Of a stretch of 64,000 nt of DNA, positions 17,052 to 57,336 are shown in pieces. Below the pieces are notes generated by a model. The model was not told the origin of the DNA. It made no database searches and was given only the letters and a program-made list of their open reading frames with translations. A program made the translations under genes and the position numbers. Every line of letters starts with the position of its first letter. The first letter of the stretch is position 1. Source of the stretch: a virus; IMG/VR virus record IMGVR_UViG_3300041964_000083, positions 64,001 to 128,000 of that record, one strand, 5' to 3'.

Positions 17052-17988
17052 ATGACTTACATTGGTTTGCCTTTGTTTAATATTTCAGACGAACAGTTTC
17101 AGCAACTAATTGAATTTGCTATTTTTGACGGCGCAATTACTAAATGCAACTGTTTTGAAGAGAATGGAACTCAGATTTGTTTGATAACCACTTTTGAATT
17201 AAACCCATCAAAACTTGAATCACCGCAAAAGCTTAAGGACGAATTGTTTTCTATTGATTCCGCTAAAGCATATTTAACGGGGTTGCTACGAGGAAGAATT
17301 AACGGACGTGTATCTACCAGGATGGCTTTTGACCTTAACTCAGGATGGCATAGGGTTGATTTTGACCAAGATAATGCAAATTCTCAAGGCGATCGCGCAT
17401 GAATCTATTGAACCAATTTCTTGAAGATTTTTGTAAACCCGTAGGTATAACATCTGATGGAGGTTTAACTTATTCTTTGAATTCCCCAAAAGAAACCGTA
17501 AACCTAGGAAAAAACTGGAGCAAAATTCATGAAGATTTATATGTTTTGATTGTGATCACAGAAAGCCAGCTAAAAATCGAAGTTTGGCATGTGGGTAGTG
17601 ATGAGGAACTAGAAAATCAAAAAAGCTTGCCTATTAACACATCGTTTAAAGAAATCACAGAAACAATCGTAGAGCTTTTGTTTGCAGCGTCTTCTTTTTA
17701 TATCGCAATAGATATTGTTGTTTAGTGCGATCGCGCAACATCATTCACAAAAACCAAAAGAATACCGTGTCAGAATTAAATCTCAGCCTACAAGCATCAG
17801 AAAACAGCACACCTGTAACCTTCCGTTATTCCGGAGAAACGTCTGAATCTGGTATAGGAGAAATTCAAATTGGAGAAACCAAAGCAGAAATAAGTATTGT
17901 TGTGCTGTGCAAAATAGCCGAACTGTTAAAAACATTAGACACAGTTGATTATCTAAAAAAGAGCAGCGTGTCAGACAAACGTAAATGA
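17052..17988 (+). CDS. Three small hypothetical genes (17052-17402, 17399-17725, ~17725-17988)
   Basis: Tightly coupled ORFs with HIP1 or near-HIP1 sites at each junction. Confidence 0.55.
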
Positions 17989-18004
17989 CAACTAATAGTT
18001 GTCA
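17986..18004. repeat. 19-bp palindrome copy 1 (TGACAACTAATAGTTGTCA)
   Basis: Overlaps TGA stop of 17725..17988; followed by terminator. Confidence 0.9.
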
Positions 18005-18007
18005 TTT

Positions 18008-18044
18008 CAACACCGCGTCATGTACTGATGCGGTGTTGTTTTTT
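18008..18044 (+). terminator. Rho-independent terminator
   Basis: CAACACCGCGTCA-tgtac-TGATGCGGTGTTG + T-run. Confidence 0.8.
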
Positions 18045-18084
18045 CGTATCAGGGTAGAATTGACATGAGAACTAGCGATCGCGT

Positions 18085-20139
18085 GTGGCAACTCAACAAG
18101 ATTTAGATAAAACCTACCTCACTATCCTTCGTCGCATAATCGAGGAGCAGTTAGGCGATCGCGTAAATCGTTTTCTTTCGCTCAAATTCACTCCACAAGG
18201 CGTAACTGGTACATTCCTAAGTGAAGCTCGACGATTTAACTTCTCTGTTAATCCAACTGAAATCAAATATGGACTCGCTACAGAAAAGTTTGATAGTTAC
18301 GCCGTTGGTTCAGCCTCGAACCGTCTAGGGCTATCCCACTTACCACTAGGAACCGATGCGTACTCCTTAGCGTTCATGCAGGTATATGAACGGTTAGACG
18401 CGGGCAAAAAGAAGTGTGTGGTTGGTATTGGTTGTGGTGGAACCTGTATTAACAACAAGAAAATGTGTCGGTTGTTGGTTAAATCCCCTGAAACTAAAAA
18501 ACTGATACGAAAGCTAGGGGAGGTGCAGGATTATGTGCAGCGTAAACCTGGAAATGCCATACTTGCGCTACTTGGAGTCGCCGCAGTTGGAGCCGCAGCA
18601 TTTACCGCAGCCGCTTACTTTGCAGGAAAACCTAACTACAATGCAAAACCGTTAGAACCTCGATATCAGGGCAAGAAACCTACGGGTAAATTACCCAACA
18701 CAACGCCAAGAGCAGCGCGATCGTTTAAAACCCCTGCGTCAGAACCCGCACCACCCCCAGAACCACCTACTGTAGTTGTTGCGCCAGCCCAACCAACCGT
18801 AAACAAGCCACCAGTATCTGTAAAACGTACTCGTAAACCATCGACAAGCGTTCCAGAAGGTCAACTAGAGATTGATATGAATACTCGGTACGTAGAGACA
18901 GTGCGGGAGGTTAAGACCGTACCTGAAGATGTATCTGGGATAAAAGAATTGCCTATTGATCAAGTTAAAGTAGCACCGCGTTTGTTTCAGTACAAAATGC
19001 CAGAAGGGGTAGGCAAGCAAGCACAAAAAGATTTTAAAGAGAAAGGTGTAACAGGCGCATTAGCTGATGCTAAGGTATGGAACCCCAATTTGGCAGGAAG
19101 CTTGATGGTATGGCGCGTACCTAAAGGTGGGGTAAAAGATGGTGAAGGGAATCAGTTTGAAGAAGGTGAATCATTGTTGGTGCATGGACACCACCGATTA
19201 GCATTGGCTCAACGCGCGGAAGGTGTATTTGAGGGAGATCCGAGTACGGGTAAGGTTGTTCCCGGTAAGCCTGATAAGGTGCGCGTCGAGTTTATCAACG
19301 CACCTACTCCCAAAGAAGCACGGGTAGTGGGAGCGCTCCAGAATATTGCCCAAGGTGCGGGAACATCCAAGGATGCAGCGAATGTATTCCGAGAGCTTAA
19401 CGTCAATGACTCCAATCAACTAAAACAGTGGGGCATTTCACTTAAAGGGAAGGTTGCTGATGAAGGATTGGGGTTAGCTGGGCTTAACGATCATCTGTGG
19501 CGCAAGGTATCAGACCCTAGTTATCAGAAACAATCAGGGGAACGGAAACTTACGACAACGAGAGCTAGTGAAATTGGTAAGATTCGCAATCCTGACTTAC
19601 AGAATGAAGTTTGGGATGTGGTGCGTACCAGCGATGATGTAGACGATGATTTTGTGAAGTCGTTGAGCGATCGCGTACAGCGTCGATATGAGCGGGGTGA
19701 AATCGCATTCCAATCACCAGAAGCGGGTAACCAAATGTCGCTATTCGACCAAGCCAAGATTGCAGTGGCTGGTGAGAAAGAGCGGGCTGAAGCTGATTCA
19801 CATATCGAGCGACAGATTACGGATAATGATAAATTCTGGTCGGGTAAGCGGATGGGCGCGATTGCAGACCGATTAAAGTCAGAAAATGTTGGAGACTTGG
19901 ATTTAGACCGCGCTGGAGAAGTATCAGAACAGACCGCTAAAGTGCGTTGGCTCTACCGCAAGGCTAAATCCCTTCCCAATGACCCCAATGCTCAAGCAGT
20001 GGAATCTGCACTCAATAAGTTTGGAAACGAGATTCAGGCTGCGCGATCACAAGGGGCGGATAAAGCTGAAATCAAGAAGATTAAGGAGGCGCAATGGAAC
20101 GAAATGCAAAAACTTCTTACCGCGTTCTTAAACGGTTAA
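18085..20139 (+). CDS. Large phage protein: Cys4 motif + hydrophobic helix, Pro-rich linker, ParB/Srx-like domain
   Basis: CVVGIGCGGTCINNKKMC; LPIDQVKVAPRLFQYK...WNPNLAGSLMVW...LLVHGHHRLALA ParB-type motif. Confidence 0.7.
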   Translation: MATQQDLDKTYLTILRRIIEEQLGDRVNRFLSLKFTPQGVTGTFLSEARRFNFSVNPTEIKYGLATEKFDSYAVGSASNRLGLSHLPLGTDAYSLAFMQVYERLDAGKKKCVVGIGCGGTCINNKKMCRLLVKSPETKKLIRKLGEVQDYVQRKPGNAILALLGVAAVGAAAFTAAAYFAGKPNYNAKPLEPRYQGKKPTGKLPNTTPRAARSFKTPASEPAPPPEPPTVVVAPAQPTVNKPPVSVKRTRKPSTSVPEGQLEIDMNTRYVETVREVKTVPEDVSGIKELPIDQVKVAPRLFQYKMPEGVGKQAQKDFKEKGVTGALADAKVWNPNLAGSLMVWRVPKGGVKDGEGNQFEEGESLLVHGHHRLALAQRAEGVFEGDPSTGKVVPGKPDKVRVEFINAPTPKEARVVGALQNIAQGAGTSKDAANVFRELNVNDSNQLKQWGISLKGKVADEGLGLAGLNDHLWRKVSDPSYQKQSGERKLTTTRASEIGKIRNPDLQNEVWDVVRTSDDVDDDFVKSLSDRVQRRYERGEIAFQSPEAGNQMSLFDQAKIAVAGEKERAEADSHIERQITDNDKFWSGKRMGAIADRLKSENVGDLDLDRAGEVSEQTAKVRWLYRKAKSLPNDPNAQAVESALNKFGNEIQAARSQGADKAEIKKIKEAQWNEMQKLLTAFLNG

Positions 20140-20478
20140 GTGAAGAGGAGCGCGATCGCGTATTGAAAGAATTTGTTCGCTTACAAGAGTTATCCCTTTC
20201 AGTTACCAAGGAAGACAGCGATATACCAGAGGCACATCCTGACACTTCTGCCTATATCGCCCCAATTTCGTGAACAAATGGCTTATTTGTATGGATGGGG
20301 GTTGTTAGTCAAGATTGGTGCAATCAAAAATGAAGTAATAGACAAAACCCTCTACAAAAAGTATGGGATAGCACCTGAATTCAGAAAAGGTAGAACGCGA
20401 TCACGTAAGCTTTGTTTCAATGTTTTCTAAAGGTTGGGTGGATGTTGATGTGCGATCGCGTATGGCATATAGCGTAAG

Positions 20479-20835
20479 TCAATCAAGTGGAACAAACTGA
20501 GAAAAGAATTTAGCTCCACCAAAAACCCCATTGGGATAGCTAGCATCAATTGTTATCCTACAATCATCTAATTTGGAATCGATGTACCAAACCCAGTAAT
20601 AGCGGTCTAACATATTGCCTGCACCAAACTGCCAATCCTTGATTCGGATAATCTCGTTACGAAACCGATACTCGCCATCTCGTACCAAATTGTTGCCATT
20701 AGTATCTACCACAGGGCACTCATCAGTATTAAAAACACTGCCAGTGTCTAAAACTCGATCAAACGCTTCAGTTAGTCTTGGGTCTTGGTTTAGCAGAAAA
20801 AGGTTTTGACGAATATTCTTGTGATTGTCGTTCAT
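20479..20835 (-). CDS. Hypothetical protein
   Basis: 118-aa ORF, ATGA-coupled to upstream RHH gene. Confidence 0.6.
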   Translation of the reverse strand: MNDNHKNIRQNLFLLNQDPRLTEAFDRVLDTGSVFNTDECPVVDTNGNNLVRDGEYRFRNEIIRIKDWQFGAGNMLDRYYWVWYIDSKLDDCRITIDASYPNGVFGGAKFFSQFVPLD

Positions 20836-20984
20836 GATTTTACTGTTGTTTTTGGGTTAGGTAGTCTGTGGATGTACTGCCGAATGATTTCAGCCATCGG
20901 TTCGCCTTTAGCATCAGCCTTAGCTTTCAACTTTAAAAACTCATTTTCACTGAGCCTGATTTGAAGTCTGTGGGTCTTTGTCAT
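20832..20984 (-). CDS. Small RHH regulator, not in ORF track
   Basis: MTKTHRLQIRLSENEFLKLKAKADAKGEPMAEIIRQYIHRLPNPKTTVKS; upstream palindrome TTGTACAT-N8-ATGTACAA. Confidence 0.75.
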   Translation of the reverse strand: MTKTHRLQIRLSENEFLKLKAKADAKGEPMAEIIRQYIHRLPNPKTTVKS

Positions 20985-21169
20985 GAACTTATTGTACATT
21001 CAAGTAGATGTACAATGTCAAATAAGCAAAAAATAACCGCCTACTAAGAGACGGTAAATTGAAGAATAACTATGCACGATGCCATGCACACACTGTCGAA
21101 GTGTAGAGCAAAACAGAAGTGCTGATTTTATTTTACCTGTTTGCGATCGCGTAACACCTTTCCTCTAAA

Positions 21170-21188
21170 TGACAACGAATCGTTGTCA
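21170..21188. repeat. 19-bp palindrome copy 2 (consensus TGACAACGAATCGTTGTCA)
   Basis: Adjacent to minus-strand terminator 21193-21220. Confidence 0.9.
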
Positions 21189-21269
21189 AACCAAAAAAAT
21201 AACCGCCTTATCAGGGCGGTGTATATAAGAAAAAAATGAAGAAACCCGATGAAGGGTTGCATTTATATT

Positions 21270-22043
21270 TTACCGACTAGCGAGCGCTTCCGCTTTATCC
21301 TTCTTGCTAATTTTCAAGAATCTAGGTGCAGTTTCAGATGGCATATTGAGTAGCGTGGAGAATTCAAATAAATCGTTGTCAGGCAAGAATTTCGTTGTCA
21401 TTTGGATGAATGCAGGTTGACCTTGGGCTTCTCTATCAAGTTTGGGGTTGAATCGGTACGGTTTGATGATTGGTCTATCCCAGCTGATGGGAACATGAGA
21501 AGCTTTCAAAGTTTTTAGTTTATCAGCAGGTGGCAACTCTTTAATGCGCGATCGCCTATCATCACTAAAATTCCGCAGCACCGTAACAACCGGATACTTG
21601 CAGACAGGGATATGCTGCCACAGTCCGCAGAGTCGAAATTCAAAATCCTGCAACTCTTTAGTAATGCTATCTTCTCGCGGTTTGTTGCCTTCAAACCCCA
21701 GTAAATTGAATGTTAGTTGGTGGGGAACATCGCGTCCGGGTAAGTGAATGACGCGAGGGTAAACGACAAGTCGCTGTTTCTTGCCTGTTCGTGCGATCGC
21801 GTACTTCAATGCCCGGAATGTCTGACGATTGATAGCATCCCCACCAAGCCGATATATGCTATCGCCTTGGTTTTCCATCACATAGCCAAGTCGATAGGAT
21901 TTATCACCAATTACAACAGACGCTTTACCTTCGTCTAGTTCAACATCAGCATAGAGTACACCAATGGCTTGAAATATCGAATCGGGTTGTGGGGTTTTGA
22001 GTAGCTGCGGCTTGGGTTTGGGAACGGGTTTGGTGATTACCAT
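21270..22043 (-). CDS. Hypothetical protein
   Basis: 257-aa ORF ending before a terminator. Confidence 0.6.
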   Translation of the reverse strand: MVITKPVPKPKPQLLKTPQPDSIFQAIGVLYADVELDEGKASVVIGDKSYRLGYVMENQGDSIYRLGGDAINRQTFRALKYAIARTGKKQRLVVYPRVIHLPGRDVPHQLTFNLLGFEGNKPREDSITKELQDFEFRLCGLWQHIPVCKYPVVTVLRNFSDDRRSRIKELPPADKLKTLKASHVPISWDRPIIKPYRFNPKLDREAQGQPAFIQMTTKFLPDNDLFEFSTLLNMPSETAPRFLKISKKDKAEALASR

Positions 22044-22086
22044 CAGTATTTTTTCAAATTCCTGTTACATATGATATGCGATCGCG

Positions 22087-22581
22087 TTACTTTTCTGACG
22101 GTAATTTAATGTGCCCCAACTTAGTCAATTCACTCAAGACTTCACTCAACTGAGCTGCATAATCCGTTTCGAGAGCACGGAGTTGTTGTTCAAACTCCAC
22201 TTGTAACTGACGTTTTGCGTACTCATGCCGAGTTTCTAGTAATTTAATAGCTATTTGGCGCTCGGAAACAATGCGTTTTCTTAATTCCAAAAGACTCTGG
22301 ATTTGAATGCTCCATCCGGAAGTTGGTCGGCGTAACTCAACGCTACGGTTTTCTTGTCTGTTTACAACTATTTCCCAACAGGGAAAATTTAAAACGTAGT
22401 CTATCAAGTGTCTTTTGCACCCCAAAGAATACAGGTTAGCCGATAACAAATCGTCAGTTAATGTGTAATCACCTTCATCAGGAAAGTTATATTCCGACTG
22501 AAAGAATTGATTCGTTGGTTTGTATTTTAGAAGCAGCATATTTTTGTCTGTTTTTTGAAGATTCAATCGCCGCTTGCTCAA
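22087..22581 (-). CDS. Hypothetical protein (true start uncertain)
   Basis: ORF with coiled-coil C-terminus. Confidence 0.5.
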   Translation of the reverse strand: MSKRRLNLQKTDKNMLLLKYKPTNQFFQSEYNFPDEGDYTLTDDLLSANLYSLGCKRHLIDYVLNFPCWEIVVNRQENRSVELRRPTSGWSIQIQSLLELRKRIVSERQIAIKLLETRHEYAKRQLQVEFEQQLRALETDYAAQLSEVLSELTKLGHIKLPSEK

Positions 22582-22756
22582 ACTCAGCCAAAGTACATCG
22601 ATACACTTCCAAAGCCAACCGTGTCTCCGTGGGCGTTAATGTTGGCACAAAGCGACCTGTTTCCCAATTGCTGATAGTTGTGTGACTTTTGCCGAGCGTA
22701 GCCGCAACCTGTTCTCGACGTAACCCAGTTTTTTCCCGTAACTCACGTAAGTCCAA
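22487..22756 (-). CDS. XRE-family HTH regulator
   Basis: LRELREKTGLRREQVAATLGKSHTTISNWETG. Confidence 0.85.
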   Translation of the reverse strand: MDLRELREKTGLRREQVAATLGKSHTTISNWETGRFVPTLTPTETRLALEVYRCTLAEFEQAAIESSKNRQKYAASKIQTNESILSVGI

Positions 22757-22897
22757 TGTACTAACAGTCTCTAATTTGTATTGTTTTCTTGTTCAGTATA
22801 CAATATTTACAGAAAATTAAAAGCGATCGCGTTTCTCGACTGGACATCTGGAATTACGCGATCGCCTTACCCCACACACATGAAGGGCTAACAGCAT

Positions 22898-23614
22898 ATG
22901 CTAACAGTCAATGAGCGCAATGGTTTACTTGTTGTTGATTCTCGATTGATCGCCAAGCGGCTAGGGATTCAGCACAAGAACTTCTTAGGAACTATCGACA
23001 AATATTCAGCCAAAATGGCTGAAAGCCTCATTGTTAAAGCACCCGCGTTTGAAACGCGCCTGGTTAAGCGCCAACAAGGTGGTAGTTTTGAAGACCGATG
23101 GGCGTGGCTAACAGAACCACAAGCTAACTTCTTGATGACGTTATCGCGAAATACCGATGAAGTTGTTCAATGTAAACTTGAGTTGGTTGAAGCGTTTGAA
23201 AAAGCTAAGAATAAACTGCGATCGCGCACAGATGTTTCTCAAGCCTCCCTTGTAGGTCATTGGGCAGAACGTCAGCGCCTGTTTATCCAGCGCACGACTA
23301 TCCCTAGCGGTTGGTTCTGTATTTTCCAAGAGCTGGCACAGTTAATGTGGCAATTAGAAAATTTGGGGTATGTTATCCCTGACTATAGTCCTGTGGATAA
23401 CTCGCGGATAATCCCGGATATCTCAATTGGGCGAATGTTCTGTAGTAATATGCGGTCAAAAGGGTATGCGGTGGGTGCAAAAACCCAGAAGTACCCGCAC
23501 TGGTATCCGGGCTGGAAGTTGCCAGTCAAAGCCAATATCTATCCCAATGCTTGGTTAGAGGAGTTCCGAGCTTGGTTTGATAACCAATGGAAACCGAATA
23601 ATTTGTTACGGTAA
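22898..23614 (+). CDS. Rha-family N-terminal domain fused to BstA-like C-terminal domain (C-terminus shorter than paralogue)
   Basis: VVDSRLIAKRLGIQHKNFL...LTEPQANFLMTLSRNT (Rha); IPSGWFCIFQE...IIPDISIG...YPHWYP...IYPNAWLEEFRAWF. Confidence 0.7.
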   Translation: MLTVNERNGLLVVDSRLIAKRLGIQHKNFLGTIDKYSAKMAESLIVKAPAFETRLVKRQQGGSFEDRWAWLTEPQANFLMTLSRNTDEVVQCKLELVEAFEKAKNKLRSRTDVSQASLVGHWAERQRLFIQRTTIPSGWFCIFQELAQLMWQLENLGYVIPDYSPVDNSRIIPDISIGRMFCSNMRSKGYAVGAKTQKYPHWYPGWKLPVKANIYPNAWLEEFRAWFDNQWKPNNLLR

Positions 23615-23621
23615 ACCGAAT

Positions 23622-25541
23622 CTAAAGGTCGTCTATCCAGTCAGCAGACTCTGGCGCTTTTACGAGCTGGATGTAGAATGCTGCTACAGAAAACATGGTG
23701 GCATAGAACAAGTCATCTATGTTGTTTTGCCCTCGACTCCACCGACCTGTAGCGGAATCATAACTAGGTCCTGTGAAGTGGACAAGGGGCGATCGCTCAC
23801 TTGGGTTACCAAACCATTGCTCCCACTCTGGAGGGAGACGGTACAAAGGAAGGTCATCAAACCCAGGTTTTAAGAATCCCACCAATACTTGTTTGAGAAA
23901 CATCTCGTTGCGTATTGCCCAACATGGGTATTCAATCCCTCCATCAAATACCGTTGTCTCTTTCACAGCATCTTTAAGTCCTGGCTTTTGGTCTGCCATC
24001 TCAAGGCAAGTGGTGCGGCATAGTTCCGATGCATCAGCACGGTCTGGTTCGTTATCAATAATTCCGTAGGTTACGTTATATTCCCTGAGCTTATCGGGTA
24101 TCGCGTTGCGCTGTACGTCTCCACCAAATAAGATCACTCGCGTACTTTGCTCCATGATTTCAGATATAGACAAACGGCTGTAAAGAGGTGGGTAGTAAAA
24201 GCCTGTAATAACTAACCAATCCTCGCCACGTCCTTGGTCTACTCCAGCTACTACAACATCCGGGCGAATCATTGGACGAGGAGCCGCGATCGCACTCCTC
24301 AGCATATCCAACGTAATATTTCCAAGCTCAGATTCAGATGGATGTCCTAAACGCTGCTGCTGCCAATCTCGATTGTTATAAGTGTCTATTCCTTCCCGAA
24401 TAATCTCAGCCGCTAAGTTATATTCGGTTAGGCGTAGTAGTGGGCTAAGGTTAATCCCTACCTTCCATCGTCGCTTAGGAATACCTTCTGGCAATTCATC
24501 TAAAAACTGACGTAATGGTTTTCCAGTCTTGCGACATTGAAACCAAGCGTTTTGACGTTTCTTGTCTGCTATAGGCTGCCCACATTCAGAACACGCAAAC
24601 CACGCCGTATTTACTGCATCCCCTTTATTTTCGCAATGCCATTCAACTGGACGACCAATCTCAGATAGATAGGATATCTTCTCTTCCCCTACCGAATCAG
24701 TTCGTTTTATTGGTTTGAGTAAACATCCCTTAGGGTCAAGCGCGATCGTTGTGCCGCAGTTATCGCAAGAGCAGTGCGGGTAGAAGTAGTGGTCTGCACT
24801 CTCAATAGATAGCTCAATACCATTTCCTGCTCCAGGTGTTCCTAGTTCTCGAATTGGTTGTGATGGTAAGCGTGATGCATCAAGACGGCGAACTAAAGGG
24901 TCGCCCGCACCCATTGGATACTGGCTACGCTCTTCTTGAAATAAGATGTCGCGACTAGTTCCTACAGCAATACCACCCGCTGCTGCACCGCCTTCATTCT
25001 TTGCCTTGGCGCTAGTGCTGACATAAGTAAACTGTGCTGACACACTCCCCAATTGGTAGAGCGTATTGTTTCGCACTCCTTCACTAGAACGCCCAACTTT
25101 AATATTTCGAGATGCTAACCATTGGCGAATAACTGGACGAAAGTTACTGGGTACTTGTAAATCCAAAGTCCGCTCTTGATCATAAGACCAGAGTGTATTG
25201 AGTCGTCCTTCGGTAAGACAAAAACAAACCAGTAACGTGTGGAGTAGCGTTTTCCCAACTTGGGCACAACCCGATGCAAGTGTAATTTTCACCCGGAAAT
25301 CGCCAATCATTTCGGCATACTCTTCGTGCCACGGGTAAAGCGTTAGGCGATCGCCCCTTTCGTTTACGCCCCATTTCTTCACTGCCGCAACAAACGGTTT
25401 ACCACCCAATATGTAGCACTGCTCGATAAAGCGATCGCGTGCCATAGGGTCATAAGGTAAGACCTGATTCTTAGATTTCCCTGCCTCCGCCATCATCTTC
25501 TTGTTGGCGTGTGTCAGCTGGGAGATTGGTTGTATCTGCAT
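23622..25541 (-). CDS. terL: Terminase large subunit (GpA-like)
   Basis: Walker A GCAQVGKT, CxxC zinc-finger pairs, AGVDQG nuclease motif; directly downstream of TerS. Confidence 0.85.
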   Translation of the reverse strand: MQIQPISQLTHANKKMMAEAGKSKNQVLPYDPMARDRFIEQCYILGGKPFVAAVKKWGVNERGDRLTLYPWHEEYAEMIGDFRVKITLASGCAQVGKTLLHTLLVCFCLTEGRLNTLWSYDQERTLDLQVPSNFRPVIRQWLASRNIKVGRSSEGVRNNTLYQLGSVSAQFTYVSTSAKAKNEGGAAAGGIAVGTSRDILFQEERSQYPMGAGDPLVRRLDASRLPSQPIRELGTPGAGNGIELSIESADHYFYPHCSCDNCGTTIALDPKGCLLKPIKRTDSVGEEKISYLSEIGRPVEWHCENKGDAVNTAWFACSECGQPIADKKRQNAWFQCRKTGKPLRQFLDELPEGIPKRRWKVGINLSPLLRLTEYNLAAEIIREGIDTYNNRDWQQQRLGHPSESELGNITLDMLRSAIAAPRPMIRPDVVVAGVDQGRGEDWLVITGFYYPPLYSRLSISEIMEQSTRVILFGGDVQRNAIPDKLREYNVTYGIIDNEPDRADASELCRTTCLEMADQKPGLKDAVKETTVFDGGIEYPCWAIRNEMFLKQVLVGFLKPGFDDLPLYRLPPEWEQWFGNPSERSPLVHFTGPSYDSATGRWSRGQNNIDDLFYATMFSVAAFYIQLVKAPESADWIDDL

Positions 25542-26061
25542 CGAGTGGTGTTACTTCCCATGCGCCAGAGTCACTTTGTCGTAGCACTAAACCGTATTTG
25601 CGAAGCGTCGCGATCGCACGGTTGAAATCGTTATCCAATCCCAAGTGCTGCATTACAAGTTTGAGTGCAGTTTTCTTGTCATGTAACTTGGCATAAGTCT
25701 TGGTACTTTTGCCAGCTTCAATCTGTCCTACTTCCTGGATTGCCGCGATCGCCCAATCAGGTAAGACATCACTATTCTTGAGTGAGAAATTACTATTCGA
25801 GAATGAAGTTACATCGGTAATTCTGGAGAAGGCAATATAAGATAATTCTTCTAAGACGCGATCGGCTGTTATCTGGGTTCTACGCGATCGCTCCGCCTGG
25901 AGTCTAGCTATCTCAAATTGTATGTCATGTTTTGACATATTTAGATCTGCGACTTGGCGTGCAGATCTCGCGCTATACCCAGCCCGTATAGCCGCCTGAG
26001 TCCCATTCAGGTCAACAATGTACTCTATACAGAACTGGCGTTGTTTGTTTGTTAAAGACAA
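25471..26061 (-). CDS. terS: Terminase small subunit
   Basis: LTNKQRQFCIEYIVDLNGTQAAIRAGYS...ITADRVLEELSYIAF. Confidence 0.95.
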   Translation of the reverse strand: MSLTNKQRQFCIEYIVDLNGTQAAIRAGYSARSARQVADLNMSKHDIQFEIARLQAERSRRTQITADRVLEELSYIAFSRITDVTSFSNSNFSLKNSDVLPDWAIAAIQEVGQIEAGKSTKTYAKLHDKKTALKLVMQHLGLDNDFNRAIATLRKYGLVLRQSDSGAWEVTPLDADTTNLPADTRQQEDDGGGREI

Positions 26062-26231
26062 TTCTCGTGGGAGATAGACTATTACTAGTTTACGTTATGC
26101 GATCGCACACCAAAGACATATGGAAAAAAATAGAAGTTAGCTTCTATAGCAAACGATCGCGCACACAAACATTGATGATAACGGGGAAGCGATCGCACAC
26201 ATCTGCCAAAATTACTTAACCAAGCGTTGAA

Positions 26232-26471
26232 ATGCTGTTATCGGAACTATGCGATCGCGCAAAAATCAAATATTCAACCGCGATCGCAGTAGTACTCGGC
26301 TGCAAGAAGCTCAAACCGTCACTGGCAATATTCCACACCTGCCAGCCAAAACCTGTCCAACTTAAGAAATTCGGCACAGGTTTCCCCAACACCCCATACC
26401 GTTGCCCTTGCTGTGATGTGTTGGTTAGAAACCCAAATGAGTTGAATTACGATGTTTTAGTGAGCAAATGA
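26232..26471 (+). CDS. Small Cys-containing hypothetical protein
   Basis: HTC...CPCC; stop overlaps palindrome. Confidence 0.5.
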   Translation: MLLSELCDRAKIKYSTAIAVVLGCKKLKPSLAIFHTCQPKPVQLKKFGTGFPNTPYRCPCCDVLVRNPNELNYDVLVSK

Positions 26472-26487
26472 CAACGCATCGTTGTCA
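26469..26487. repeat. 19-bp palindrome copy 3 (TGACAACGCATCGTTGTCA)
   Basis: Overlaps TGA stop; followed by terminator 26491-26518. Confidence 0.9.
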
Positions 26488-26625
26488 AACAAAAACACCC
26501 CGTCACAACGACGGGGTGTGTCGCCCAAGACAAGCGACGATAAGAAAATTGTTCCAGAATTCTATTCTACTGCCTTGTAAACGTGAACGTTATTTCTTAA
26601 CTAATGCGATCGCGTCTCCCTTTGT

Positions 26626-27015
26626 TCAATTTTTGAACCCGTACACGTAATATTCGTAACCGTTAGATAAGTTGCATCCACCCATAACGCAAATAAGTTT
26701 CAACTTGGGGTTATCAAAATACGCTCTCAAAAACGCTTCTGCGTATCGGGCTGTTCTTGGTGATGCGCCTGAATCCTTTGCTTTCTCGCTTGCCGCTTCT
26801 GCTTTCGTCCTATCCCATTGCCAGATGCGATCGCTATACTCCCATGTCAAACCATCTTCTTGATGACCATAAATAACTTGAGGCTTTTTCCAGATTTTTT
26901 GCTGATAACTTGGGTACTGAAGGCGTTGATCTGGGTCTAATGTTGGAATAATTGCTGGTAGCTGATATTCTTTGGCAATGCCATGCGCCATTTCAAACCA
27001 TTCTTCGTCCATCAT
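26626..27015 (-). CDS. Hypothetical phage protein
   Basis: 129-aa ORF. Confidence 0.6.
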   Translation of the reverse strand: MMDEEWFEMAHGIAKEYQLPAIIPTLDPDQRLQYPSYQQKIWKKPQVIYGHQEDGLTWEYSDRIWQWDRTKAEAASEKAKDSGASPRTARYAEAFLRAYFDNPKLKLICVMGGCNLSNGYEYYVYGFKN

Positions 27016-27084
27016 CGCTTTATCCTTGCAATTTGTTGAGTAGACGCAAGTCCTAATAATGTACGGTGCGATCGCGTCTCCCCT

Positions 27085-28242
27085 TTAGTCTCTAATCTGT
27101 ACGGGCATATCAGGTAAGTCATCTTCAACTCACCTAGGGGTACGAGTATGACCGGAGTATCAGCGGTATTAATCAACATCTGAATCTCTGTAGTCGCAAG
27201 CGTCTTTAAGCCATCAATTAAGTATTTAACATTGAAGGCTATAAGTAAGTCATCACCTGATACCTGAATAGGCATTGACTCTTGTCCACTACCAACATCT
27301 TGAGCATCAACCGATAAAGTAAGCTGCTGGTTAATGCTGTCAATGCTGAACTTAACCGTATTGTTTTTCTGGTCAGCTAGTACGCCGATGCGCTCCACTG
27401 CACCAAGTAACTGCCGTCGATCAATTGTGACTTGCCGCTGGAACTGAACTGGAATCAACTGCCGATAGGCTGGGTATGTTCCTTCTAGTGTGCGACTCGT
27501 TAAGCGCTGCTCTCCCTCCTGAAAGACAAGCTGACCTTGCTCAAAATGAAGCATAACCGTATCTACTGGTTGCTTGGTGGCAATCATCCGTTCAAGCTCT
27601 TTTAGCGCTCTAGTGGGCACGGTGACTTGAAATGGCTCAACACTTTCTTGATTGTCTTCGCTCTGATTTTTTGTTTCTACAACGGCAAGGCGATGCCCAT
27701 CTGTGGCAGCAAACTCTAAGCCATCTTGCTGAACAGTTAAGTGAACACCAGTTAGTACCTGTTTGGTTTCATCGGGACTAGTGGCAAACAGCGTGCTACC
27801 CAACCCTTGCTTTAGCGCTTCAACGGGGTAGGCTAATTGCCGTCTCTGATTGCACCTGTGGAAGTGCTGGGAATTCATCAGCACTCATCCCGCGCATTTG
27901 ATAGCGCCCAGATGCTGAAGTTAGCGTGACGATATGGCTACCTTCAGCATCGCCTTCTCCTGATTTCTCAGATAACGTGATTTCCCCTTCAGATAGACGA
28001 GAAACAATATCACTAAGTAGTTTTGCCGGAATGGTTAGTTTTCCGCTCGTTTCTACCGTAGCGGCAAAACTGGTCTGAATGCCAAGACTCAGATCAAATG
28101 CGGTAAGCGTCACCTTCTGTGCTTCGGCATCAGCCACGAGCAGCACATTACCCAATATTGGGTGGGTAGGACGAGAGGGAACCGCTCGACTTACTAGAGA
28201 GAGGTTTGTGTTGAGTTCGCTTTGGATGCAGGTTAGTTTCAT
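27085..28242 (-). pseudogene. dnaN: DNA polymerase III beta clamp, cyanobacterial type, with two frameshifts
   Basis: MKLTCIQSELNTNLSLVSRAVPSRPTHPIL...FAATDGHRL...; extra base in G-run 27825-27828; missing base near 27108 (alternative frame gives expected end MPVQIRD*). Confidence 0.9.
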
Positions 28243-28277
28243 GGTTTTGTCCAATGTTGGTTGTTGTGTGCGATCGC

Positions 28278-29459
28278 CTAATAACTGTCAGTGCCTAAAA
28301 TCTTAGATTTTGGTTTGGGTTTGTTTACCCGCCACTTTTTAAAGCTACGTTCGCTATACCATTGAGGAGGACTACCATTCCAAGAAGCAAATACTTTTTG
28401 GTTGTCGATATCAACCTCAATTATTTTGAGCGTGTAGAGCGCGCCGTATGAAATCTTGACCACACCCATCTGCTGACGACGCACTTCATAGACGATTTGC
28501 TCTGGCTTAAGTCGATTAATTGATGCCATGTTTATGCCTCATTAATGAAAGTTAGTTGCAAATAAATTATGTGCGATCGCGCTCCTCTTTATCTGGAAAA
28601 GTTGCCCAAACAGGAACTTCGCCTAAACAAATCCAAATAAACAAGTCTTCCCAGTACCCAGATTGAGCCTGAAGAGTTATTGATTCTGTTAACAAAGAAA
28701 GCGATCGTGCATTACGAAATGAGCAAGCGTGCGATCGCTTTACAACTTTAAAAGGTATATGTGCCGTACCCTTAAAATTGTTGTGTATAGAATCTGAATC
28801 CACAAAAACGCTCATTGGATGTACGTTTAATTGTTGTGCTGATTCATACATTTGCCGAGTGATGTCAAACAGCAGTACAACTTCATCACCAATCATAAAA
28901 CTGGCAAATGAAGATAAATCGTTACCGTCGTATAGATTGAAACTACAGTCTATTGCAGTTTCGTATTTGCGAGATTGAAAATATACCATGTGCGATCGCG
29001 TCCTGTTTAAAACAAATTTAACTGTCCTGGAACTTCTGCTAAACATCGCTCCACTTCATCAATCACAGCTTTAGCGAAGTCTCTGATAAGTGTGTCGTGA
29101 TAGTAGCCAAACTCTTCATCCGTAGGGCGACCCCACCAACCCGACTCGTGGATGATATCAACAGCAAGAATACCCCCATTGGGAATATCGAGGTAAATAC
29201 CCCATCCTCTGTACGGTTGGATTTCGTTCTCAGGATAGTCACACTCCTCACCCATATGAATAAAACCAAATTGGTCTACAAGCTGATCAATCCTGCCAGC
29301 TAATCCAGTCAAATGAGAGGCTCTTAGCTTGTTGGTGTCAATTTTGAAAACTTCAGGCAACTCTAACAAGACACCACCACAGTCTTCATGCTCCATCTCA
29401 CTTAAGTTTTCGAGGCTATCGATGATTTCGTCACAGCGGGAACAACGGTACTTAGTCAT
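28278..29459 (-). CDS. Three small hypothetical genes (28278-28529, 28567-~28989, 29007-29459)
   Basis: Co-directional ORFs separated by HIP1 junctions; the last has a CxxC...HxxC zinc-ribbon start. Confidence 0.55.
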
Positions 29460-29620
29460 GTGCGATCGCGTCCTCCAATCTTTTCGTAAATAAACTCTCT
29501 AACTGCATCCGCCATAGTGGTTTTGTTTTTTTGACACCACTCAGCAAATGCCTCTTTGTCGGATTTCTCCAAATGAACATGGATATCCGCAGGCTCTTTA
29601 TATCTCTTAGGTCGTGGCAT
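29456..29620 (-). CDS. Small RHH regulator, not in ORF track
   Basis: MPRPKRYKEPADIHVHLEKSDKEAFAEWCQKNKTTMADAVREFIYEKIGGRDRT; divergent from BstA-like gene. Confidence 0.7.
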   Translation of the reverse strand: MPRPKRYKEPADIHVHLEKSDKEAFAEWCQKNKTTMADAVREFIYEKIGGRDRT

Positions 29621-29752
29621 TTCTTTAATTCGGTCTATGGGTTATACTATATACCATAAACCAATAATTGCAAAGCAAAAGCGATCGCGCACCTCGGACT
29701 GGAAATCTGGTTACGCGATCGCCTAGCACTACCCAACTACTTAGGAGCACCA

Positions 29753-30657
29753 ATGGAAATCATACGTCGCGTTGACAACAACGTCGAGTTTTACACAGTA
29801 ACTGCTACCGGAAAATCTGGAATGAGTCAAAGTGGTTTATCAATTCTTTCTGGAGTTACCCGCCAAGCTATTATCAAAATCGAAAAGACCCTTGTAACCG
29901 AAGCACCATCTAAAACGCTGGAAAGGTTTGTGGGTAAGGATTTTACCCTTGTAACCGAAAATGCAATGATTGATGGTAAACCAACCGGAAACCTCAATGT
30001 TTACGCTTCGCCGTTTTGCGGAGCAGTGATTCGTCACTATGCATACAAAGGTAACGATACGGCACAATATAGCCTTGAACAGTTCTCTGATATGGGGATA
30101 GAGAAGTGGATTCAAGAGATTACTGGATGGACTAAACCCAATCAACCGTCTCAAGCATCAATGGTTGGGTACTGGGCAGAGCGGCAGCGGCTATTCATCC
30201 AGAAGACTACAATCCCTAGTGGGTGGTTCTGTGTCTTTGAGGAATTGGCTAAGTTGATGTGGCAGCTTGAGAACTTGGGTATGTTATCCCCGACTACAGT
30301 CCAGTAACCAACAAACGGATTATGCCCGATATATCGATTGGTAAAATATTCTGCAAATATATGCGGAAGAATGGCTACGCTGTTGACTCTACTGTTCGCA
30401 GCTACCCGCATTATTATCCCGGATGGGCGTTACCCGTAAACGCTAACATTTACCCCAATGCTTGGTTAGAAGTGTTTCGAGCTTGGTTTGATGAGCAGTG
30501 GAAGCCGCAACGGTTGGTTAAGTATTTAGGAAAGCGCGACCCCGATAGTATGCCTTCAATCTGCAAATTGTTAGGTTTACCTGAAGCGCCAGTGCAACTT
30601 GAACTACTTACTGTTAAAAATGGCGAGATTCTAGTACTCAAAGATTGCAACAGCTAA
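29753..30657 (+). pseudogene. BstA-like protein (KilA-N-like N-domain + BstA-like C-domain), one frameshift
   Basis: GMSQSGLSILSGV...FCGAVIRHYAY...GIEKWIQEITGW then IPSGWFCVFEE / MPDISIG...YPNAWLEVFRAWF; one G missing at 30277-30279 relative to paralogue at 22898. Confidence 0.7.
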
Positions 30658-30672
30658 CTCAATTATCTAGAC

Positions 30673-30691
30673 TGACAACGTTTCGTTGTCA
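30673..30691. repeat. 19-bp palindrome copy 4, extended to 29 bp (TAGAC...GTCTA)
   Basis: TAGAC-TGACAACGTTTCGTTGTCA-GTCTA. Confidence 0.9.
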
Positions 30692-30721
30692 GTCTACCAC
30701 TAGAACCAATACCCAAACCTT

Positions 30722-31275: not shown

Positions 31276-31291
31276 CAACGAATAGTTGTCA
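31273..31291. repeat. 19-bp palindrome copy 5 (TGACAACGAATAGTTGTCA)
   Basis: Followed by terminator 31301-31326. Confidence 0.9.
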
Positions 31292-35684: not shown

Positions 35685-35693
35685 GTTAAAAAT

Positions 35694-44096: not shown

Positions 44097-45413
44097 AGTA
44101 AATGAAATGTTGTGCGATCGTGTAAATAAACTAACTCAATTCTACGACGTTCCTGCTCGATGTGCTGAGAGCTACGGATAAGGTCTACAAAGCTTGAAGC
44201 TAAATAGAATTCGTTGTTGTCAGCAAAAACTATCTTTGCTTCGAGGTGTTTAAATTGTTCTTGGGAGATGGATACAGCAGGCGGTTGAATAACGGGAAAT
44301 TTGGCAAACTTGATGTGCTTGCCAGCGAGATCAGGGGATACTTCGATAATGCCGCCCTCGGCAATTGTAAGTTGTCCAGTTCCCGTGATTTGGGAGACTA
44401 TACTCACACCCTGAGCTTCGCCTTTGGCTGGGAGATACGCGATCGCAGGTGTAGTTTCATCCTGAGCCATAATTCGCCCGGTTTTACCCAGTAGATGTAA
44501 TTGCCCTTTTGTCCCATGTAGGTAGGTTTCAGCTTCAGCGTACATGGCTGGTGTTTCATCAACCTTGTACTTGCTGCCAATACTAATTGCATACAATTCA
44601 GCTCCCCCACCTAAAAAGGAGAGGGAGATGCGATCCGATGTAATCGTAATGTCGGGAGGTTTGGCGATCGCGGGTACTACTGCACCATCAGCAACAAGCC
44701 AAGCGCGAAGCGGTGTAGTATCTTCAAGCGGGGCGGGGAATACCATTGTCTATCTGAATGGTGTCTAGGGAACGCGGACCTTTAGCGGCATACTTCACCG
44801 GCGCTTGAAATTCAACGCTAGTTGCAGCACCCGTAAACCACTGTACCGTGATATCACATAGCGGTAGACCGGTGGGGTCAACTGAGTAAATAAGGTTAGC
44901 CTCCATGATTTTCACATGGCGCACACTACCAGATGCTGGGGTTGTCGTCGCGATCGTCACGTTTCCAACAGCGGTACTACCCGCGTTGTCGAGCGTGAAA
45001 GCCAAGCCCGCTACAGCACCGGTTATCGTGATTGTGCCGTTACTGGCTTTGGCGTTTACCCTAGGGTCTTCGTTGAGCTGTTTAGCGAGGTTTTGGGCAA
45101 TGATTGTCACCGTGTCAGCATTCTTTTGGCGATAGAGTGCTGTTCCTGGTGCTAGCGTCACGTTGGACGTACCACTGGTTGGTGGGGCATCACCTGCGAT
45201 CGCAAGAGAATAAACGTCACCCGTTGCACCGGCTGTAATAGTAACGGTAGATGTTTGGATTGCCGCTGCGGGGTCGAGGGAGATGTATTGCTCGACTTTG
45301 ACTTGATTTTCGTTTGGCGTAGCTACCCGGCACTCTGAAACAACAGACGCTGGTGCAGTTTGAGATAGTTTTGGTCGATTAAAAGTAAGTGTTCCAGTAG
45401 CTTGATCTGGCAT
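44093..45413 (-). CDS. Two putative virion structural proteins (44093-44746, 44724-45413)
   Basis: Thr/Ala/Gly-rich beta proteins (TVTITAGATGDVYSLAI...ASNGTITITG). Confidence 0.55.
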
Positions 45414-45500: not shown

Positions 45501-45519
45501 TGACAACGATTCGTTGTCA
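45501..45519. repeat. 19-bp palindrome copy 10 (TGACAACGATTCGTTGTCA)
   Basis: Overlaps stop of minus-strand RHH gene. Confidence 0.92.
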
Positions 45520-45769: not shown

Positions 45770-46531
45770 ATGAGAAAAGGTCAAATGACTCAATTTAAAG
45801 GATTTGGTTCAGCCCCAAAACTAATAAAAGGATGGCTGCTCCCAGAGTTGCAAGAGAATTACACCGACAACGCATACAACATGGCGTCATTAAAAACAAC
45901 GATAAACCTATGGACTGGTTATCTTTGTTACCGAAAAGTAGACAAAAGTGATTGTTTTGAGCGTCGAGTTGAAGTGGCGTCATCTTGTTTTGCTTTGTTA
46001 TGCCAAATAGATTCCGAGCTTGACAAACTAACAGCCGATGAAACAAACTTTAAGTCTTTGATTAATCGATTGAAAAATGATGATGACTTTTATATTTCGT
46101 TTATCAACAAAAGGTACGAATTAGTCAAAGCTCGGACACTTGCAGGAGATACCGAAGATTTGAATGTACTGATCAAAGAGTCATACGACTACAAGGATTG
46201 GCTTAAAGAATCTGGTGTTTTGTCTGCTGGTATTGAGTTAGTTGATGGCTGGGGGCATCCATTATCAGCAGCAGGTAAGGTAATTGACGGCGAAGAAACA
46301 ATGAATACTTGGGCATTTGCCAGCATGATTTGCGCTACAGCCACAAAACGACTAGAAGGTGGAAATCAAGAAAAAGCCGTTTCTATGTTGATTACATTTG
46401 GCGTACTTGAACCTGAAACATGGCAAACAAAAGTTGAAATATGTCGGCAAATAGACGCTGAGTACATTCAAATAATCAATCGCTGCCACGCTGAACTTGA
46501 AAACAAGCTGGAAAAAGCTTTTGAGAAGTAG
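45770..46531 (+). CDS. Hypothetical protein with KGFG motif
   Basis: 253-aa ORF behind consensus promoter. Confidence 0.6.
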   Translation: MRKGQMTQFKGFGSAPKLIKGWLLPELQENYTDNAYNMASLKTTINLWTGYLCYRKVDKSDCFERRVEVASSCFALLCQIDSELDKLTADETNFKSLINRLKNDDDFYISFINKRYELVKARTLAGDTEDLNVLIKESYDYKDWLKESGVLSAGIELVDGWGHPLSAAGKVIDGEETMNTWAFASMICATATKRLEGGNQEKAVSMLITFGVLEPETWQTKVEICRQIDAEYIQIINRCHAELENKLEKAFEK

Positions 46532-49831: not shown

Positions 49832-49850
49832 TAACAACTAATCGATGTTA
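49832..49850. repeat. 19-bp palindrome copy 11, with symmetric G>A / C>T change (TAACAACTAATCGATGTTA)
   Basis: Degenerate match immediately before terminator 49851-49875. Confidence 0.7.
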
Positions 49851-54878: not shown

Positions 54879-54897
54879 CGACAACTATTCGTTGTCA
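54879..54897. repeat. 19-bp palindrome copy 12 (CGACAACTATTCGTTGTCA)
   Basis: Adjacent to terminator 54901-54930. Confidence 0.85.
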
Positions 54898-55673: not shown

Positions 55674-55806
55674 TGCTCATTTCCTTTTGTAGGTTAGTGG
55701 GCAGCAGCCACCCTGCGTGTGTTCAATTCGACAGGGTGGCTGCGTTTACTTGCTAAGTGAATTCAGTACATCTATAATTATGGATGTACATAACATAATA
55801 AGTCAA

Positions 55807-56067
55807 ATGGTTAGACCTACATATTGGGATGAAACAAAAGAGCGACATCAAATTAGACTTACGCCAACGTGTTGGCAACATTTAGATGATATAGCAGCAG
55901 CAAATGCCCTACCTAGTAGAGCAGAAGCGATTGAATACTTGTCTCGGTTTGCAGCTAGGAATTACATCATATTCAAAAAAGATAGTAGAGCGATCGCACA
56001 TGACTCAACACAGACTTTACGGACTGCGGGGAAAAGCATACGTCACTCGCTACAAACAAATCTTTGA
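55807..56067 (+). CDS. RHH-like regulator
   Basis: KERHQIRLTPTCWQHLDDIA...SRAEAIEYL. Confidence 0.6.
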   Translation: MVRPTYWDETKERHQIRLTPTCWQHLDDIAAANALPSRAEAIEYLSRFAARNYIIFKKDSRAIAHDSTQTLRTAGKSIRHSLQTNL

Positions 56068-57264
56068 AAGCGATCACGCCGCCATTCTTGCTGCATTCAA
56101 CGGCTTGGTTGAACGTGATGGGAAGTTTACGCCTGTGCATTTAGGACAACTTTGCAACGAGTTCCAGCTGCCTGTAAAGGTAATGGACGATTTCTTGCCA
56201 GAGATCACTAACCGCAGGTATTCTGCTGGAACATGGGAGCGACTGCAAGATAGAGGGTGCAAGGCAAAAGATATTGGTGTTACTTGGGAGCGCGATCGCA
56301 CATGACAAATCAACCAACCAACACAGACGCCGTACTAGGCGGTAACAATCAAACAACTGCTGCGGTGCTTGGAGGTATCGAAGGAGCAAAGCGAAGATTT
56401 CATCAAGCCAAAGAATTCCAGCAGCGATACGCCGCATGGCTGGAGATAGCCAAATATGACCCAGCAGAAGCAGAGCGATTGAGCAACCAGTTGATTAGGT
56501 TAAATATCGAAATTGATGAAGCTGGGGTGCAGAAGCTTCGTGATGCGATCGCGTCAGCACAACAAGCCATTGCAAATATGGCAACCACAATCGCACCAAC
56601 ATTTAAAAATGTTATTGATACATATCAGTATTTGGAGCAATTACGGAGAAATGGCGTTATTAGCGACTACGAATATGTAAGTAGTTTGCGAGAACTTCAA
56701 AATATGAATACGCCTTCATTTCCAGAAAAGAAAGCTGAAAGTAAAGGAATACTTCTTCAGATATGGGATGCTAAGGATGAAGCTGAGTGGAGAAAAGAGA
56801 AAGAACTGGAGAAAAAACATATAGCCAAGTTAAAACAATCTTCTTATCTAGATGGGGTTGAGCGCATTATTGGGAAACGCAAGCGGAAATATTAAGCGTA
56901 TTTAATTCACATGATAGATCAATCAACACAACACAAAGATTTCCAATTTACAATTGCTGGTAAAGTTTACACTGTACCTGCTGCGGTATTCGTAGAAGCC
57001 ACAAAAGATGTTACTGCTACTAAATGGCATGACAAAGACAAAAATTGTTTATTTGCAGCAAAAGAGGCTTTCTTTAAATCTATTAACGCAATTTACTATC
57101 TTGATGACTCGCGTAGTTTTCGCCACACGCTTCATATCGATGGTGTTTTGGTTTGGGTAGATTATTGGAAAGATAGGGCAAAAGAGAATTTAATGGCAAA
57201 TCTGTTTGAATCACTAGCAGACTACATCTACGAGATTGGAATAATCTCTAAACCTCTAAATTAA
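56000..57264 (+). CDS. Three hypothetical genes (~56000-56305, ~56301-56895, 56911-57264)
   Basis: First two start right after HIP1 (GCGATCGCACATG); second begins with DAVLGG..AVLGGIEG. Confidence 0.55.
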
Positions 57265-57317
57265 TTGCGCGATCGCACATAACAAACCCCTCGGCTCACA
57301 CTGAGGGGTTTTTGATT

Positions 57318-57336
57318 TGACAACGAAACGATGTCA
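57318..57336. repeat. 19-bp palindrome copy 13 (TGACAACGAAACGATGTCA)
   Basis: Overlaps stop of 57334..57588; next to terminator 57284-57313. Confidence 0.85.

Follow-up and report, generated by a model that had tools for sequence, protein, structure and literature searches.

To our knowledge, few phages and plasmids have genome-wide arrays of a single protein-binding site; the known cases are the L5-type stoperators, the C1 operators of P1, the phiC31 repeats and the KorB sites of RK2. Here we describe a cyanophage case, a 19-bp palindrome present in ∼29 copies in the IMG/VR virus record IMGVR_UViG_3300041964_000083 (153,952 bp, 98% complete according to CheckV). Bases 64001–128000 of this record form the window, that is, the whole 64,000-nucleotide stretch that was analysed; site positions from 15817 to 57318 are given in window coordinates, and positions marked "genome" in coordinates of the whole record. 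The palindromes gather at gene ends, recur in a related contig (C295) and co-vary with an undescribed protein family, here called domain X, whose genes, in nearly every homologue examined, carry the same kind of site within them. In the phage, X is the C-terminal part of a methyltransferase fusion, which is the presumed binder of the array.

Stoperators of cluster A mycobacteriophages (L5/Bxb1) are asymmetric sites of 13–14 bp with a fixed orientation that are bound by a monomeric repressor, and are thought to halt elongating RNA polymerase and not just to occlude promoters (PMC9283540, PMC6550527). The array described here is similar in that tens of copies of one short predicted protein site are spread over short intergenic regions phage-wide. 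It differs in that the site is a 19-bp dyad without orientation bias and concentrated at convergent gene ends, and in that its presumed binder is a methyltransferase fusion in the replication module rather than an identified immunity repressor.

In Bacillus subtilis, parS lies inside spo0J. With KorB–OB of the IncP plasmid RK2 and with ParB–parS, the phage shares a dispersed palindrome on a mobile replicon, a predicted dimeric helix-turn-helix (HTH) reader and a site within the binder's gene (PMC11790492). The majority of KorB sites, however, sit at promoters or upstream of them (PMC11790492), unlike the phage sites, which avoid promoter gaps. X also lacks the ParB_N CTPase domain, the phage lacks ParA, and a barrel and a helical C-terminus replace the ParB dimerization domain.

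Lambda O provides another precedent for a self-embedded site, since the dyad 19-bp repeats of ori-lambda are encoded in the linker between its N-terminal DNA-binding and C-terminal domains. X likewise has a palindrome in the linker-coding region after its HTH domain, and its putative DNA-binding part co-varies with the sites. Unlike lambda O, X has neither an AT-rich element nor a Phage_rep_O domain and usually one repeat only, and the 25–29 dispersed copies are unparalleled there. In C5 methyltransferases of the SsoII/EcoRII type, an N-terminal HTH binds one palindromic operator in the enzyme's own promoter. The phage protein is comparable in joining a methyltransferase to an HTH, predicted to bind DNA, with a palindromic site distinct from the methylation target, but its HTH is C-terminal and of an unrelated family, and there are 25–29 sites per genome.

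Two further groups of elements share the position at gene ends. REP elements, with their RAYT proteins, and DNA uptake sequences are short palindromes in extragenic 3′ positions by terminators. As in REP/RAYT, the phage repeats lie near terminators and the gene of the cognate protein bears its own repeat type; in contrast to REP/RAYT, there is no HUH/Y1 transposase (Y1_Tnp was not found by Pfam in X or the fusion), complementarity of the arms is not maintained and no expansion in host chromosomes is seen. Integron attC sites measure 57–141 bp and stand at the 3′ end of cassettes. Placement at 3′ ends and overlap with stop codons are found here too, but the site is only 19 bp long, and no recombinase homologue was detected on C295.

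Copies, consensus and placement of the palindrome

A scan of the full record gives the consensus TGACAWCK-N3-MGWTGTCA, and 25 of the 29 copies lie in non-coding DNA, which makes up 6.9% of the record positions under a simple call of open reading frames (ORFs). Within the window, TGACAACG-N3-CGTTGTCA was matched 13 times at ≤ 2 mismatches, compared with 0.03–0.25 matches expected from shuffles. All 13 copies listed in a preliminary description of this DNA were found, 12 of them among these matches and one (49832) at four mismatches; the remaining match, at 15817–15835, is new. The half-site reads T-G-A-C-A-[A/T]-C-[G/T], with positions 3–5 unchanged in 58 of 58 half-sites. As spacers, AAT, AAA, CAT and GAT occur, always with A or T at the centre, and the flanking base is never G.

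The two arms vary independently. At position 6, the phage copies show 11 one-arm and three two-arm changes (2.5 expected under independence), and at position 8 nine one-arm changes and one two-arm change (1.2 expected); in C295, all three changes at position 2 affect one arm only. At least one arm position is unpaired and uncompensated in 18 of the 29 copies. The preliminary description had read a symmetric double change as a sign of selection on symmetry, but the copy concerned, 49832, is a lone case. RNA folding gives ∼−9 to −11 kcal/mol for perfect copies (z ∼−5) and −1.5 to −5.9 kcal/mol for variants (z −1.0 to −2.6), and Rfam returned no family in the window. Because the arms change independently and the variants fold weakly, the pattern suggests two degenerate half-sites, each read by one subunit of a protein dimer, rather than a maintained stem.

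The strict alternation of A- and T-centred spacers reported previously holds within the window only. Six consecutive A-centred copies occur at genome 21284–44490, C295 has runs of three and of six T-centred copies, and near-identical X genes can differ by a flipped spacer. Since alternation breaks down both elsewhere in the phage genome and in the relative, we treat it as chance. T-centred copies are never adjacent anywhere in the phage genome, a pattern with p ∼0.009 by our own combinatorial count, made post hoc.

Sites were found in 9 of 24 convergent, 11 of 132 tandem and 2 of 23 divergent gaps of the phage (Fisher p = 0.036 for convergent versus divergent and p = 0.0006 for convergent versus tandem), divergent gaps being the longest class. 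The copies at 41023 and 45501 are the only two in divergent gaps of the whole genome. The same distribution is repeated in C295, with 8 of 18 convergent, 13 of 113 tandem and 1 of 18 divergent gaps occupied, and these counts bear out the earlier view that the sites mark transcript ends and not promoters. Stop codons are supplied by ∼8 of the 25 intergenic copies in the phage and by 13 of the 23 copies outside the X gene in C295. Among the 13 copies listed previously, five had been credited with an ORF stop (six with a frameshift corrected); we find four (17986, 26469, 35666 and 57318), and the new copy at 15817 also supplies one. The centre base of the stop-supplying sites (four A, four T) is unrelated to the strand of the ending gene, and site orientation relative to transcription is random.

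Genome-wide, 13 of the 29 copies have a hairpin followed by a T-run no more than 45 bp away, compared with 5.95 ± 2.1 for 25 random intergenic positions. Six such cases were identified in the window by the scan and a seventh, at 54879, by eye; seven abutting terminators had been noted before. As a class, the copies are not intrinsic terminators, in the sense of a GC-rich hairpin with a T-run: the terminators stand beside the sites, and a T-run directly after the copy itself is found just twice (genome 45024 and 54626). We also considered the site as a −35 promoter element and rejected it: TTGACA is often formed with the flanking base, yet TAnnnT follows at 16–18 bp in only 4 of 58 orientations. 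Convergent ends, stop codons and terminators are favoured by the sites of both phages, and divergent promoter gaps are avoided.

Domain X and related elements

The bare motif was searched in 185,579 species genomes, and all phage ORFs were then compared by tblastn with the loci found. The motif search returned single matches at about chance level together with clusters in cyanobacteria, and X is the sole protein family common to every element found with the phage palindrome. In the phage, X is the C-terminal ∼300 aa of a 905-aa ORF (genome 19465–22182; locus L123:465–3179), preceded by a C5-methylase fragment and a Dam-type methyltransferase. The gene is located outside the window, 42–45 kb upstream of it, and follows DnaB and a Pol III alpha-like ORF within the replication module. 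Stand-alone X homologues in loci from Crocosphaera, a Chroococcopsis plasmid, Stigonema and metagenomes contain the exact palindrome within the gene, at a position matching the phage copy at genome 21521.

X homologues were present in 47 of 401 sampled cyanobacterial genomes, often several per genome. The family comprises > 2000 sequence clusters, the majority of them from Nostocales, and its members are often encoded on plasmids or small contigs. Stand-alone forms account for ∼2000 clusters versus 45 long forms; at least six independent protein clusters join X to a C5 or Dam-type methylase, and all three phage-like elements examined have X in fused form, each with a different methylase module. 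Pfam and NCBIfam gave no family match for X, whose homologues are unnamed, PHROGs gave no informative family, and a profile search against PDB sequences gave no match. Foldseek against the PDB returned only a KOW-like barrel at E > 0.01. Leads from the ESM Atlas had low scores (0.84; DUF3102 in a minority of one cluster's members) and were not used as evidence. In the literature, no paper containing any of six palindrome strings was found.

Of 30 X loci retrieved from the 401-genome sample, nearly all carry a perfect or one-mismatch 8-3-8 palindrome at the same linker-coding position. Its form is TGnnnnnn-(AAT/ATT/TTC)-nnnnnnCA, in one to three copies per gene but mostly one, and twelve inner sequences occur among the 30 loci (e.g. 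TGTCCACA, TGGGAACC, TGCCGACC and TGTGATCG). The alignment places the palindrome in a variable linker directly past the conserved helical N-domain. It is read in two frames and with both spacer orientations, yielding unrelated peptides (LTTNRCQ, CPQIVDI and GTNGSQ), which argues that the DNA and not the peptide is conserved. X genes with two or three palindromes, 39–84 bp apart (L146:1391–1526, L135:1739–1796, L136:1721–1778 and L144:2021–2123), encode repeated linker peptide units (GTNGSQI...).

The palindrome co-varies with an HTH-like segment of X, TFEEYC.DRFG-x-recognition helix. Where palindromes differ, proteins with C-domains 71–75% identical have HTH regions just 37–40% identical; where the palindrome is the same, C-domains only 35–48% identical accompany HTH regions 57–73% identical. 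Common ancestry swells such figures, but the contrast between the domains runs in the direction expected of a specificity determinant, and at least 12 natural protein–site specificities would co-vary with one short helix. The core of the earlier proposal, a phage-wide cis system read by a dimeric protein, gains support from the independent arms, the A/T centre and this co-varying HTH family.

An AlphaFold model of X (mean pLDDT 86) predicts a helical domain at the N-terminus, a barrel of the KOW/Tudor-like kind, and helices again at the C-terminus. In structure alignments (VIA-align), the N-domain (model residues ∼25–145) pairs with the DNA-binding domains of ParB–parS, SopB–DNA, KorB and Spo0J structures (6s6h, Z 6.9; 3mkw, 6.6; 8qa8, 5.6; 1vz0, 5.4). 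Because Raf1 scores 9.7, we take the likeness to ParB as resemblance and not as membership. The predicted X homodimer scored 0.30, below the mark of 0.42 set for such models, a result that counts neither for nor against dimerization.

None of the partners proposed earlier fits the array. ORF 18085–20139, taken to be ParB-like, had no Pfam match, and its PHROG match is limited to the C-terminal part of a portal family. For the tyrosine recombinase, no homologue was detected on C295 with its 25 sites, and the Rep-like paralogues were not found together with the motif in the loci of other genomes. The sites had also been suggested to act in partition, in the manner of parS. With Pfam, ParB_N (PF02195) was found neither in the phage record nor in the 905-aa protein nor in 22 X homologues, the same library having detected ParB_N in a neighbouring plasmid gene, and the phage record had no match to a ParA-type ATPase (PF13614). 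Since this 98%-complete record has neither component, a partition role would be without its machinery.

Among X loci with examined neighbours, parA–parB stands beside X only on plasmid unnamed4 of Chroococcopsis gigantea (L054:3131–3420). Two exact phage palindromes lie there between the divergent X gene and parA–parB, 164 and 435 bp upstream of parA, and X may regulate the partition genes of this plasmid. Tyrosine recombinase genes are found directly beside stand-alone X in Crocosphaera-type loci (L043:3967–4920 and L126:158–1291). Calothrix/Dulcicalothrix loci (L026, L042, L075, L081, L086, L114 and others) carry TTGACAACG-AGT-CGTTGTCAA, a 21-bp dyad at conserved chromosomal intergenic positions, in one case just past an ORF ending in ...GFGGTNAVIALGS. 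This dyad resembles an operator, as if read by a host regulator whose half-site is nearly the same.

The relative C295 (130,130 bp, binned in an Allocoleopsis assembly) has 25 motif copies, most of which have T at position 8; the other 8.3 Mb of its assembly yielded only two matches, each with one mismatch. C295 shares thymidylate synthase, ribonucleotide reductase, DnaB and X with the phage at 66–86% amino acid identity, few further phage genes and none of the capsid-region ORFs. Its X domain is 69% identical to that of the phage at the amino acid level, with an identical recognition helix. Five sites are orthologous between the two elements despite diverged intergenic flanks, and their DNA homology starts precisely at the methylase/X junction, where the first palindrome of the fusion gene lies. 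The C295 orthologue of ORF 30722–31252 has its stop within a site. At C295 53084–53102 and 66118–66136 (L158 and L159), one palindrome stops both convergent genes, with TGA in one arm and TCA in the other, leaving a gap of 13 bp. A third element, a 16-kb contig (L155), has the gene order of the phage (DnaB, Pol III alpha, methylase/RNase HII/Dam/X) and two copies of TGACAACT-N3-AGTTGTCA, both overlapping a stop codon.

The motif is rare in host chromosomes (1–5 copies in each of five cyanobacterial genomes), and many host genomes have a single site, located inside the X gene. As C295 repeats the array and host chromosomes hold so few copies, the system is conserved and travels with X rather than forming a host regulon. 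The preliminary description had named abundance in the host chromosome, absence from relatives and loss of alternation as observations that would tell against it; only the loss of alternation was observed. Megablast of 23 kb against the phage collection gave no match, and a probe with the major capsid protein found no relatives in IMG/VR; the exact motif had 14 single matches there, none of them in a relative and together about as many as chance would give. The phage is rich in the HIP1 octamer GCGATCGC, with 247 copies in 154 kb (∼2 expected), and the 130-kb relative has 210. Phage DNA was found in DNA contigs of biocrust and soil metagenomes, with no RNA dataset listed as containing the phage. 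HIP1 richness and this occurrence point to a terrestrial filamentous cyanobacterial host, probably one from biocrust such as Allocoleopsis.

Possible roles of the array

We lean towards the view that the palindromes are cognate sites of the HTH domain X and that bound X acts as a roadblock or insulator, perhaps tethering the methyltransferase as well. An X dimer would occupy each site, with one TGACAWCK half-site per subunit across the A/T-centred 3-bp spacer, and would form an obstacle to RNA polymerase. The ∼29-site array could then back up terminators and insulate opposed transcription units, copies within the X gene could provide negative feedback, and fused methyltransferases might be held on the phage's own DNA. 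We favour an obstacle to transcription because a site inside its binder's own coding region can exert control only if it halts elongation or nucleates something, because promoter gaps are avoided, suggesting that binding there would be harmful, and because the sites gather where stopping the polymerase is useful, i.e. after stop codons, beside terminators and between convergent units. Tethering is proposed as a second role because X is repeatedly fused to different methylases, and the two roles are mutually compatible.

Several observations weigh against this view. The X fusion of L155 has lost both internal palindromes by decay, which makes them dispensable there, and the co-variation of helix and palindrome is partly confounded by shared descent. 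The modelled similarity to ParB-type folds is modest for a helical domain, with the unrelated helical domain of Raf1 at the top of the comparison. The 3′-end bias could merely mirror where sites are tolerated, and a second binder is possible, for example the repressor-like ORF 1189–2073, whose orthologue in the relative is 38% identical. Finally, a roadblock alone leaves the repeated methyltransferase fusion unexplained, and a tether alone the stand-alone majority of the family.

If X does bind these sites, the family could be used in three ways: as a ready source of orthogonal DNA-binding modules for genetic work in cyanobacteria, as a system in which to test whether large phages insulate transcription or target methylation to their own DNA, and as a simple sequence tag by which related phages and plasmids are recognized in metagenomes from biocrust and soil.

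It is rather unlikely that the sites serve purely as address tags, recruiting methyltransferase–X to phage DNA so that self-methylation outpaces host restriction, with no role in transcription and with gene ends as harmless places. The fusion of X to C5 or Dam-type methylases, its presence in each of the phage-like elements, the onset of phage–relative homology at the first palindrome of the fusion, and a genome-wide distribution irrespective of module and scarce in promoter gaps are all in line with tagging. The excess of stand-alone X clusters without a methylase is not, nor are the many host genomes with one site only, in the X gene, and the sites bear no general relation to GATC or CGATCG targets. 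We regard as similarly doubtful a mixed form, in which an HTH family fused to methyltransferases would use 25–29 tags for cis-targeted anti-restriction that double as insulators at gene ends.

Recombination is a less probable explanation again. The palindromes would be cassette boundaries, loosely like attC, at which modules are shuffled by a tyrosine recombinase or through 19 bp of microhomology. Such a role would account for the stop codons supplied by sites in both phages and for the methylase/X junction lying exactly at a site; ORF 8202–8663 stays with its site though neighbouring gene order differs between the phages, and in the phage an extra gene lies between RNR-beta and its site. The recombinase beside X in Crocosphaera (L043:3967–4920) is 50% identical to window ORF 33297–34262. 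In metagenome contigs, a joint that skips 940 bp (window 17047–17988) ends at the first base of copy 17986, and two contigs depart from the phage exactly at copy 30673, which may reflect mosaic variation with sites as its borders. However, two such site coincidences among the ∼54 contig endpoints listed (contigs over 17001–37000, with many strain differences) are near chance, and only one of 24 ends of phage–relative homology blocks lies ≤ 30 bp from a phage site, at the X junction. C295 maintains its 25 sites with no detectable recombinase homologue. Tyrosine-recombinase cores have overlap regions of 6–8 bp, and 8-bp arms around a 3-bp spacer are unlike them. Passive mosaicism at shared sites could itself be a by-product of binding sites.

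That the sites are replication elements is very unlikely. X would be an initiator like lambda O, with origin repeats in its linker-coding region and dispersed copies for copy control or handcuffing. By analogy, its N-terminal, putatively DNA-binding domain, its one to three 19-bp linker dyads and its separately evolving C-domain may be said to mirror lambda O and ori-lambda; the X gene lies in the replication module, and X is multi-copy and often found on plasmid records or small contigs. Against this, AT content around the palindrome in 13 X genes (0.48–0.62) does not exceed that of the rest of the genes, leaving no unwinding region, and no cumulative GC-skew extremum lies near genome 21–22 kb. 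Most X genes have one palindrome, the phage has a separate initiator-like ORF (12104–13258), and 29 gene-end sites match no known origin logic. Cyanobacterial Reps defined by experiment (CyRepA and CyRepX) are helicase-like and belong to another family than X (PMC10899382).

We give slightly less credence still to the hijacking of a host transcription factor that would read the sites. The conserved positions of the Calothrix dyad suggest that a similar cellular factor may exist, but outside C295 its 8.3-Mb assembly and the five other cyanobacterial genomes hold only the few copies given above, and the motif co-occurs with X and not with any host gene set. Least credible of all are RNA hairpins, as 3′ stabilizers, processing sites or REP-like parts of terminators, since the stable folds of perfect copies, the many 3′ untranslated positions by terminators and the T-runs after genome 45024 and 54626 are offset by uncompensated mismatches in most copies, weakly folding variants, random orientation relative to transcription, the lack of an Rfam match and, with Pfam empty for X, of a RAYT-type transposase accompanying it, and by stop-overlapping copies that would presumably be melted by terminating ribosomes.

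Individual sites and neighbouring genes

The copies in the window and in the X-fusion gene are listed in Table 1.

Table 1. Palindrome copies and their immediate surroundings (window coordinates unless marked "genome")
Feature	Position	Surroundings
Copy, TGACATCGATTCGATGTCA	15817–15835	Absent from earlier list; TGA = stop of ORF 15088–15819
Copy, TGACAACTAATAGTTGTCA	17986–18004	TGA = stop of ORF 17725–17988; terminator hairpin 6 bp downstream
Perfect copy	21170–21188	Tandem minus-strand gap; terminator adjoins
Perfect copy	26469–26487	TGA ends 79-aa ORF 26232–26471; terminator abuts
Perfect copy	30673–30691	30 bp upstream of ORF 30722–31252
Copy	31273–31291	20 bp past stop of ORF 30722–31252, then terminator
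Copy	32772–32790	Upstream of Rep-like paralogue 31710–32498 (minus); 9 bp past stop of ORF 32800–33009
Copy	35666–35684	Convergent gap; TGA = stop of ORF 35420–35668; minus-strand gene 35694–36056 ends 9 bp off
Copy	36509–36527	13 bp past stop of minus-strand ORF 36541–36990; overlies annotated start region of ORF 36062–36544
Perfect copy	41023–41041	Divergent gap between Rep-like paralogue 39810–40745 (minus) and ORF 41114–41845 (plus)
Perfect copy	45501–45519	Divergent gap between 44724–45413 (minus) and 45770–46531 (plus)
Degenerate copy, TAACAACTAATCGATGTTA, 4 mismatches	49832–49850	Convergent gap; terminator abuts
Copy, CGACAACTATTCGTTGTCA	54879–54897	Between two minus-strand genes; hairpin with T-run adjoins
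Copy	57318–57336	Convergent gap; TCA 57334–57336 = stop of minus-strand ORF 57334–57588; terminator abuts left
Three copies in X-fusion gene	genome 21284, 21521 and 22180	X start, within X and stop codon, respectively

A 25-kb stretch at genome 54626–79817 is free of palindromes. It holds giant genes, a 1549-aa ORF (genome 62075–66724) followed by a single 3821-aa ORF (window 2725–14190), together with other tightly packed plus-strand genes. The small genes flanked by palindromes include those for a Rha-type regulatory protein and a BstA C-terminal-like fragment (window 22898–23614 and 30322–30657). BstA is an abortive-infection protein, and the window fragment resembles its C-terminal part.

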